DNA of 5,125 bases, taken from the IMG/VR virus record IMGVR_UViG_2690316166_000021. One strand, given 5' to 3'. Shown here piece by piece: positions 891 through 1,004 of this stretch (within the stretch, counting starts at the first letter, position 1; every line of letters starts with the position of its first letter). The stretch comes from a virus (taxonomy: Duplodnaviria > Heunggongvirae > Uroviricota > Caudoviricetes). The notes under the pieces are model-generated. The model ran no database searches. It saw only the letters and a program-made list of their open reading frames with translations, and was not told the DNA's origin. The position numbers were made by a program, and so were the translations under genes.

Positions 891-918
891 GCACAGAAAA
901 GCCCCTCCGGAGAGGGGC
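891..918 (-). terminator. intrinsic terminator (copy B of repeat): 7-bp GC stem, UCCG tetraloop, UUUUCUGUG tail
   Basis: Minus-strand reading of 918..901 = GCCCCTCTCCGGAGGGGC, immediately followed by TTTTCTGTGC (900..891). Confidence 0.5.
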
Positions 919-989
919 TGGAGAGTGGCGCTATGTGCCATTGCATGGTGCCGGGTGCCTCCCGGTGAATTCAGTACCAGCACCTGAAT
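895..989 (-). ncRNA. candidate ~95-nt structured small RNA (5' stem ATTCAG/CTGAAT, internal hairpins CCGGG-AGGCA-CCCGG and CCAT-GCA-ATGG, 3' intrinsic terminator)
   Basis: Extended -10 motif upstream on minus strand, several stem-loops, and a strong terminator at the 3' end; the last 83 nt are duplicated at 522..604. Purely structural inference; could instead be a duplicated 3' UTR or gene remnant. Confidence 0.25.
900..982. repeat. 83-bp direct repeat, copy B (identical to 522..604)
   Basis: Identical to 522..604 over 83 bp; flanks diverge on both sides (upstream only partly similar; downstream of copy A is masked). Confidence 0.9.
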
Positions 990-994
990 CCGCG

Positions 995-1004
995 ATTATC
1001 CCAT
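995..1004 (-). promoter_or_regulatory. extended -10 promoter motif TGgGATAAT on minus strand (no convincing -35)
   Basis: Minus-strand reading of 1003..995 = TGGGATAAT (TG, one nt, then hexamer GATAAT, 5/6 to TATAAT); predicted start near 989. Confidence 0.25.

Follow-up and report, generated by a model that had tools for sequence, protein, structure and literature searches.

Does the stretch at positions 891..1004 of the 5,125-nucleotide (nt) virus record IMGVR_UViG_2690316166_000021 (Caudoviricetes; the whole of this sequence is hereafter called the window) encode a small RNA (sRNA), and if so, which one and with what boundaries? A sequence-only reading had proposed an unrecognised, structured sRNA of ~95 nt on the minus strand, preceded by an extended -10 motif and closed by an intrinsic terminator. 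We find that 891..1004 is the 3′ half of a catalogued prophage sRNA, which is already known and is the same allele as EcOnc05 of Escherichia coli O157:H7 Sakai. It is very likely, in our judgement, that the region as a whole encodes an Hfq-binding, base-pairing sRNA of the STnc100 family, ~155-215 nt in length, with a folded body, an exchangeable 3′ seed, and an intrinsic terminator. Its family membership, structure, genomic context, and identity to EcOnc05 were observed directly, whilst for Hfq binding, the size of the transcript, and its 3′ end we rely on the literature on the identical allele or close relatives.

When the window was searched against all Rfam families, RF02076 (STnc100) gave a full-length match on the minus strand at 889..1079, with a score of 136.3 bits (the gathering score being 47 bits) and an E-value of 5.7e-31. 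The match takes in model positions 1-206 of 206 and is not truncated; 891..1004 makes up its 3′ 60%, so the boundaries proposed earlier split a larger unit. All of the RF02076 consensus helices, namely the closing helix, the CCCCU/AGGGG hairpin, the GGRUUCAG/CUGAAYUC hairpin, the CCGGG/CCCGG hairpin, and the 3′ terminator, are present in the model alignment, as well as in the minimum-energy fold of 1050..891. The window element thus agrees with RF02076 in score, in helices, and in its location in the late region of a lambdoid prophage. The family is entered as "Gammaproteobacterial sRNA STnc100", and was first listed in Salmonella; the window shares its helices, its terminator, and its lambdoid-prophage setting. 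Further RF02076 matches were found in Sakai prophages Sp4, Sp5, Sp11, and Sp17, in phage Nil3, and in E. coli strains 042, 2D, and TOE17.

The second line of evidence is identity to an RNA that has been detected experimentally. In E. coli O157:H7 Sakai, Tree et al. (2014; PMC4104026) mapped the RNAs that crosslink to Hfq and described convergent sRNA pairs in a "moron" site downstream of the late promoter PR′ in eight lambdoid prophages. EcOnc05, the fifth orphan Hfq site in their Table S2, gave a northern band of ~222 nt (PMC4104026). Window positions 1107..898, which run from CACAAUU through the terminator stem, are 100% identical to the EcOnc05 locus of Sakai Sp4, and the three mismatches in the alignment all lie upstream of 1107. 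The EcOnc05 northern probe, AATCCGCGATTATCCCATATACCTACTCGCTGATT, matches 987..1021 exactly, and the EcOnc05 peak obtained by Hfq UV crosslinking and analysis of cDNA (Hfq-CRAC) maps to 1018..910. The two copies differ in the tail that follows the terminator stem (UUUCUUAUGG in Sakai, UUUUCUGUG in the window) and in their surroundings: EcOnc05 lies 3′ of the argO tRNA, with Hfq-bound RNAs (EcOnc08/21) converging on it, whereas the window copy lies 3′ of a DUF3927 gene and has no detected partner of the AgvB/AsxR anti-sRNA type. Elsewhere in the family, STnc100_4 of strain EDL933 gave a positive northern, and STnc_100 was detected in outer-membrane vesicles with quantitative PCR primers that match the window exactly.

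The sequence-only reading was therefore right in kind, but wrong in length, promoter, and supposed novelty. The RF02076 match and the identity to EcOnc05 bear out a minus-strand sRNA gene with the terminator that it described, situated in a lambdoid prophage, and the motif, hairpins, and terminator that it listed are all found on the minus strand where it placed them. The sequence that it did not recognise is that of both RF02076 and EcOnc05, and the covariance-model search that it recommended as a check returned STnc100, a family already catalogued and longer than the RNA proposed.

Folded to minimum energy, 1050..891 adopts the Rfam consensus structure, and we describe its elements from the 5′ end, all on the minus strand. 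A closing helix, P1, is formed by GCAUGGUG at 1043..1050, which pairs with CACCAUGC at 950..943 in the Rfam consensus and in the fold. It encloses hairpin P2 (CCCCCUGUGCGGAGGGG, 1023..1039), which is almost invariant across the family; a segment that we call S1 (AUCAGC, 1015..1020), complementary to the apical loop of the next hairpin (GCUGGU, 981..976); a variable cassette at 992..1014, which is one of at least six alternatives in the family and holds the supposed -10 motif, TGGGATAAT; hairpin P3 (GGAUUCAG-GUGCUGGUA-CUGAAUUC, 967..991, with the stem at 991..984 / 974..967), previously taken to be a 5′ stem; and hairpin P4 (CCGGG-AGGCA-CCCGG, 965..951). Positions 943..965, which comprise P4 and the 3′ strand of P1, are the most conserved stretch of the family. 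They are followed by a mostly single-stranded, variable 3′ module, AAUGGCACAUAGCGCCACUCUCC, at 920..942, and by the intrinsic terminator AGCCCCUC-UCCG-GAGGGGCU at 893..919 (stem 919..900), with the U-rich tail UUUUCUG. A terminator scan of the window gave four overlapping hits that represent two hairpins, as compared with 1.1 expected, and a read of the Sakai allele obtained by crosslinking, ligation, and sequencing of hybrids (CLASH) ends at GGGGCUUUCU plus a poly(A) tail.

Folding energy by itself says less. It lies below that of shuffled sequences, but only modestly so (z = -2.1 for 99 nt and z = -1.95 for 160 nt). Comparison among 31 distinct relatives was more informative: over the entire structure, 94.5% of cells are paired, versus 37-49% when the partners are slid, and P3 covaries at two pairs (GC 16 / AU 10 at one, AU 17 / UA 6 / GC 4 at the other). 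The other helices hardly vary and are hence uninformative on covariation; changes in the 3′ strand of P1 are all wobble-compatible, which is no real covariation test, since the search pattern fixed the 5′ strand.

A useful comparison is provided by PasD1 and PasD2 of enteropathogenic E. coli E2348/69, which are 173 and 172 nt long, respectively, by RNA-seq coverage and northern blotting (PMC8550237; bioRxiv 10.64898/2026.05.13.724894). According to the same sources, the sizes and Hfq-dependent stability of the five Pas sRNAs as a group were northern-confirmed, pasD1/2 levels changed little in the authors' RNA-seq contrast, and the PasD seed, UGUGAG, was inferred from targets found by RIL-seq (RNA interactions captured through ligation and sequencing), with chimeric reads mapping there. 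PasD1/2 are Hfq-associated RNAs of ~172 nt that share with the window the 5′ strand of P1, P2, the S1-loop complementarity, a P3-type hairpin, and the upstream DUF3927 gene. However, they are without the CCGGG/CCCGG hairpin, they have their own seed, UGUGAG, and terminator, GGCUGCGCAUNGCGC, and their loci score below the STnc100 gathering score. We therefore rejected the idea that the window element is PasD itself, given its P4 hairpin and its different seed and terminator; PasD is a sister family of STnc100, not the same family.

On the scaffold common to STnc100 and PasD, the 6-9 bases just 3′ of P2 are complementary to the P3 apical loop in all six sequence classes (S1/loop: AUCAGC/GCUGRU, CUGGUG/CACCGG, AAUGAUC/GAUCAUU, AAUGAC/GUCAUU, CUGGCU/AGCCAG, and AAUGACCA/UGGUCAUU). 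Since the register differs between classes, counting on a MAFFT alignment was dropped in favour of a register-free comparison of cognate with non-cognate partners. Cognate duplexes had a mean energy of -9.3 kcal/mol, versus -5.0 for non-cognate ones, and just 2 of the 720 permutations of the six classes did as well. Some of the pairs are G-U, which points to selection at the RNA level on the minus strand. Thus, S1 (1020..1015) probably pairs with the P3 loop (981..976), and, judging from these complementarities, the interaction is a candidate for either a tertiary contact of the kissing type or an alternative, mutually exclusive helix. The pairing is annotated neither in the Rfam consensus nor in the published RNAalifold models, and this covarying interaction may be a new observation.

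Where does the RNA begin? For this question, and for the conservation of individual motifs, we drew on 145 family occurrences, spread over 133 loci in collections of phages, viral contigs, and genomes, and representing 88 distinct sequences. Two regions upstream of the body come into consideration. The proximal one, at 1057..1086 on the minus strand, has a -35-like TTGTCT (1086..1081) and an extended -10-like TGTTAAAAG (1065..1057), spaced correctly for a start at G1050; the PasD 5′ end, the G of GCAUGGUGAAUCC, aligns to the same position, and a T(G/A)TTA(A/G)(A/T)A motif at about -15..-7 from the GCAUGG at this 5′ end is present in 83 of the 88 distinct relatives. The distal one, at 1097..1116 on the same strand, consists of a -10-like TAAATA (1116..1111) and a conserved CACAAUUCAGG (1107..1097), and is kept behind unrelated upstream genes. 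The reason for considering it is the size of EcOnc05. For alleles with a PasD-type upstream region, the bands of Tree et al. run ~10% above the lengths predicted from GCAUGG (EcOnc04, ~197 nt predicted and ~222 nt observed; EcOnc06, ~157 and ~177 nt; EcOnc13/PasD, 172 and ~187 nt). EcOnc05, which shares the upstream region of the window, is the exception, with 156 nt predicted and a band of ~222 nt, which suggests a start ~50 nt further upstream, near CACAAUUCAGG. From this, we infer that the distal block is a candidate promoter and 5′ end (~1104) for a form of ~210 nt. The RNA would accordingly start at ~1104, at 1050, or at both, and would end at the intrinsic terminator near 895. The Rfam model, which begins 29 nt upstream of GCAUGG, fits neither the PasD-type start at 1050 nor the one at ~1104.

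Autonomous transcription of this kind has a competitor, in which the sRNA has no promoter of its own and is cut by RNase E or other nucleases from late transcripts that originate at PR′ and are antiterminated by Q, or from read-through of the DUF3927 gene, which would make it a processed sRNA or one of the 3′-UTR type. The sRNA is indeed co-directional with, and downstream of, Q, PR′, and DUF3927; the promoter-like elements upstream of it are weak; and the sequence ahead of the conserved block varies with context, with no conserved -35 for the distal start. Furthermore, PasA, a related prophage sRNA, reportedly arises by processing of a longer transcript, and EcOnc27, another member of the family, gave two northern bands, of 235 and 247 nt (PMC4104026), which we counted in favour of processing. 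On the other hand, EcOnc05 is expressed in uninduced cultures even though, in both Sakai Sp4 and phage Nil3, the tRNA genes are separated from the sRNA by an intrinsic terminator. The great majority of relatives (the 83 of 88 given above) retain the T(G/A)TTAAAA motif at -15..-7 from GCAUGG, and PasD combines it with a good -35, TTGACT, at 17-18 nt. Moreover, the same module is found, and is expressed, behind very different genes (the argO tRNA, stx2B, DUF3927, and another copy of itself), which argues for an autonomous gene. We consider it unlikely, though possible, that processing of read-through transcripts is the sole source of the RNA; the two routes are not mutually exclusive.

It is considerably less probable that the window encodes an independent ~95-nt sRNA, transcribed from the internal TGGGATAAT at 1003..995 with a start near 988 and the same terminator. 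The extended -10 motif does exist on the minus strand at that location, fits TGnTATAAT at eight of nine positions, is correctly placed before P3, and is conserved within its cassette, where the TGTGATAAT variant retains the TG. As a promoter, it fares poorly. Sequences matching TGNTATAAT with at most one mismatch occur twice in the window, versus 2.5 expected by chance, and the promoter scan found no -35 partner. TGNGATAAT is present in 42 of the 88 distinct relatives and belongs to just one of the at least six alternative cassettes that lie between the two conserved parts of the RNA; it is missing from the remaining 46, or about half of the family, including the validated PasD1/2 and EcOnc27, and also from copy B of strain 2D. 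The motif also lies inside a longer RNA that is crosslinked to Hfq and detected on northerns: the EcOnc05 probe is almost wholly upstream of ~988, so the supposed promoter region is itself part of the RNA. It is true that Hfq-CRAC and CLASH reads are concentrated on the 3′ part, and that the EcOnc05 and EcOnc06 probes, which lie upstream of or across the proposed start, are ill-suited to detect a 95-nt 3′ species. However, for EcOnc04, which shares the TGGGATAAT cassette, the probe lay in the 3′ module, where an internal product of ~135 nt would show; the table of Tree et al., which reports listed sizes rather than blot images, gives several sizes for other RNAs, but only ~222 nt for EcOnc04. 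Identical or near-identical alleles have been detected at ~177-222 nt, and the PasD relatives at 172-173 nt. Finally, both the closing helix and the S1-loop pairing need sequence upstream of 1004, and an RNA begun at 988 would lose the partners of each, which is further evidence against a functional unit of 95 nt. A minor ~95-nt species, produced from the internal motif or by processing, could still accompany the longer RNA.

How might such an RNA act? The family is a mosaic, in which a constant body is joined in many combinations to at least six internal cassettes, more than ten 3′ modules, and two upstream promoter types; the more than ten modules that occupy the position of 942..920 among relatives are unrelated to each other. 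The position of the PasD seed, taken together with the Hfq crosslinks of EcOnc05 and EcOnc27, which span the 3′ part (PMC4104026), makes an Hfq-dependent base-pairing sRNA the best-supported mechanism. The 5′ two-thirds would then be a conserved folded body, in which P1 encloses three hairpins and the variable cassette, and the 3′ third would comprise a mostly single-stranded, exchangeable module, then the terminator with its U tail. Hfq would hold the terminator and U-tail region, and the 3′ module (942..920) would base-pair with target RNAs in trans. By analogy, the AAUGGCACAUAGCGCCACUCUCC module is the presumed seed of the window allele, and different members of the family would carry different seeds. 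In the predicted fold of a 217-nt form, the leader GGGGAGU (1073..1067) pairs with ACUCUCC (927..921) of this presumed seed, a pairing that could mask it in the long isoform. The leader-seed pairing is without covariation support, as the same leader co-occurs with unrelated 3′ modules.

Several points weigh against this overall picture. The transcript evidence stems from the identical allele and from relatives. Our assignments of the exact start site or sites, the seed, the targets, and the physiological role are likewise indirect: the starts are deduced from bands that run ~10% high and from the RNA-seq of a relative, and both upstream candidates fail a strict sigma-70 consensus scan, their -10-like hexamers (TAAATA and TAAAAG) being weak. 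The EcOnc05 allele has no validated target, and the tables of the RNase E-CLASH study hold only single-read hybrids for it. The large, conserved 5′ body is left unaccounted for by a simple model of a seed plus Hfq. Lastly, some STnc100 copies of EDL933 have appreciable ribosome footprints (PMC5331693), and one of the footprinted copies has the same TATGGGATA motif as the window, flagged there as Shine-Dalgarno-like (PMC5331693).

The size of the body raises the question of whether it, and not the seed, is the functional part, with the RNA serving as a protein-binding or decoy RNA, as a stabiliser or insulator acting in cis where moron transcripts end, or as a conserved recombination module, and with mRNA pairing being secondary. 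Conservation of the body far exceeds that of the 3′ module, and the body contains a covarying hairpin and the loop-strand pairing; the function field for STnc100 is blank in a published survey of sRNA families; and family members often occur as tandem pairs 468-483 nt apart, with mosaic junctions also common, as recombination modules would give. Nevertheless, PasD1/2 yielded many Hfq-dependent RIL-seq chimeras through the 3′ seed, the Hfq crosslinks of EcOnc05 and EcOnc27 fall on the 3′ part, and the G-U wobbles in the covarying helices speak for selection at the level of RNA rather than DNA. We regard a function centred on the body as highly doubtful and retain the Hfq-dependent, base-pairing sRNA as the preferred explanation. 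A combination of the two is another matter. The conserved S1-loop pairing or alternative helix, together with the free exchange of seeds on a constant body, may indicate a "scaffold plus swappable seed" system in which the body has a function of its own; we put this forward tentatively, rating it at slightly less than an even chance.

Other detected members of the family occupy the same site as the window element, between a moron gene and the esterase/lysis genes. These are EcOnc27/sRNA103, which lies 75 nt downstream of stx2B and is convergent with the anti-sRNA AsxR, EcOnc04, and EcOnc06, which is paired with the anti-sRNA AgvB. EcOnc04 and EcOnc06 have a variable cassette that is the same, or nearly the same, as that of the window, whereas the 3′ seed modules and terminators of all three are unlike those of the window. 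Overexpression of sRNA103 was reported to raise fimZ and espA transcripts; nothing comparable is known for the window allele. An association with clinical outcome has been described for variants of the stx2-linked copy.

The anti-sRNAs AgvB (RF02702) and AsxR (RF02703) themselves reside in the same prophage hot spot and bind Hfq, but they are 51-62 nt long with a conserved 3′ region of ~42 nt, are encoded on the strand opposite the STnc100-type RNA, and are unrelated to it in sequence. An element of this type was rejected for the window, as neither model matched either strand up to E = 1, whilst the same Rfam search does find both in Sakai Sp5 and Sp17. In those two prophages, a convergent anti-sRNA (AsxR and AgvB; 3229..3281 of our locus L004 and 487..548 of L135) lies directly 3′ of the STnc100-type RNA. 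The corresponding downstream sequence of the window, 834..888, is unlike Sp5 and Sp17 and contains no such partner before the gap.

As to its surroundings, the window represents part of a lambdoid prophage of E. coli, and the sRNA lies in the "moron" zone between Q/PR′ and the lysis genes. This placement follows from the late antiterminator gene Q at 4240..5061 on the minus strand. A small coding sequence of the DUF3927 family (1145..1276, minus strand) is immediately upstream of the sRNA, and the same gene precedes PasD1/2; downstream are an iraM-like gene (151..486, plus strand) and the start of a DUF1737 gene, and at the matching loci of E. coli 2D, 042, and TOE17, holin and lysozyme genes lie downstream. 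The 609-nt segment 834..1442, which includes the sRNA, was matched in 2859 of 5426 complete E. coli genomes, at a median of two places per genome and a maximum of 12.

The window also holds a second, partial copy of the sRNA on the minus strand (519..604), which extends from the P3 loop to the terminator (542..521), repeats 897..982 at 99% identity, and ends exactly at the run of N that begins at 605. E. coli 042, which has a single-copy iraM-sRNA arrangement, is collinear with 86..604, and strain 2D with 834..1442; in 2D, a second, diverged copy and an esterase gene come after the sRNA. A two-copy arrangement with a spacing of 378 nt was not seen in the complete E. coli genomes searched, and a simple 378-nt tandem duplication was rejected, since the flanks 834..896 and 1212..1274 do not match. 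The two copies may be one tandem arrangement or two prophages joined by scaffolding. N runs occupy 605..833, 1443..3885, and 3952..4051; the last of these, of 100 N, corresponds to ~66 nt in strain TOE17, so the runs behave as scaffold gaps of uncertain length, and we rejected the idea that they are masks of exact length. Between Q and the sRNA, TOE17 has a small open reading frame, a DNA methyltransferase gene, and three tRNA genes.

Some further features of the window deserve mention. The gene at 151..486 encodes a prophage-borne homologue of IraM, an anti-adaptor that inhibits RssB and stabilises RpoS; it converges on the partial sRNA copy, and its stop codon is spanned by a perfect 12-bp inverted repeat (456..489). 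On the minus strand, Q is directly followed by a strong intrinsic terminator (stem at ~4161..4143, then six U), which occupies the position of tR′ after the late promoter PR′; in Shiga toxin (Stx) phages, the short PR′-tR′ transcript is itself an sRNA, StxS. A Trp_leader match at 4133..4239, far under its gathering score, is merely this terminator, and a Yar_3 match at 4328..4385 was rejected, also being far under its gathering score. ARAGORN detected no tRNA or tmRNA in the window. On the plus strand opposite the sRNA, 935..1060 is annotated by the Prokaryotic Genome Annotation Pipeline (PGAP) in matching genomes as an "incomplete hypothetical protein" pseudogene, and E2348/69 has similar protein calls antisense to PasD1/2. 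A conserved small open reading frame through the region was rejected: among relatives, the scaffold varies in length from 112 to 135 nt by differences that are not multiples of three, so a plus-strand protein is not credible, and the PGAP calls look like spurious proteins over an RNA gene.

The candidate is thus a real RNA gene, already in Rfam and detected experimentally, which needs correct boundaries rather than a discovery effort. Its family ranks with the sRNAs most abundantly annotated in genomes of enterobacteria and adjoins the Shiga toxin genes in Stx2 phages. The correct boundaries, the modular seed architecture, and the additional covarying pairing are starting points for finding the function of the RNA, and, if the "scaffold plus swappable seed" proposal is true, the scaffold body could serve in stability, protein binding, or presentation of the seed.

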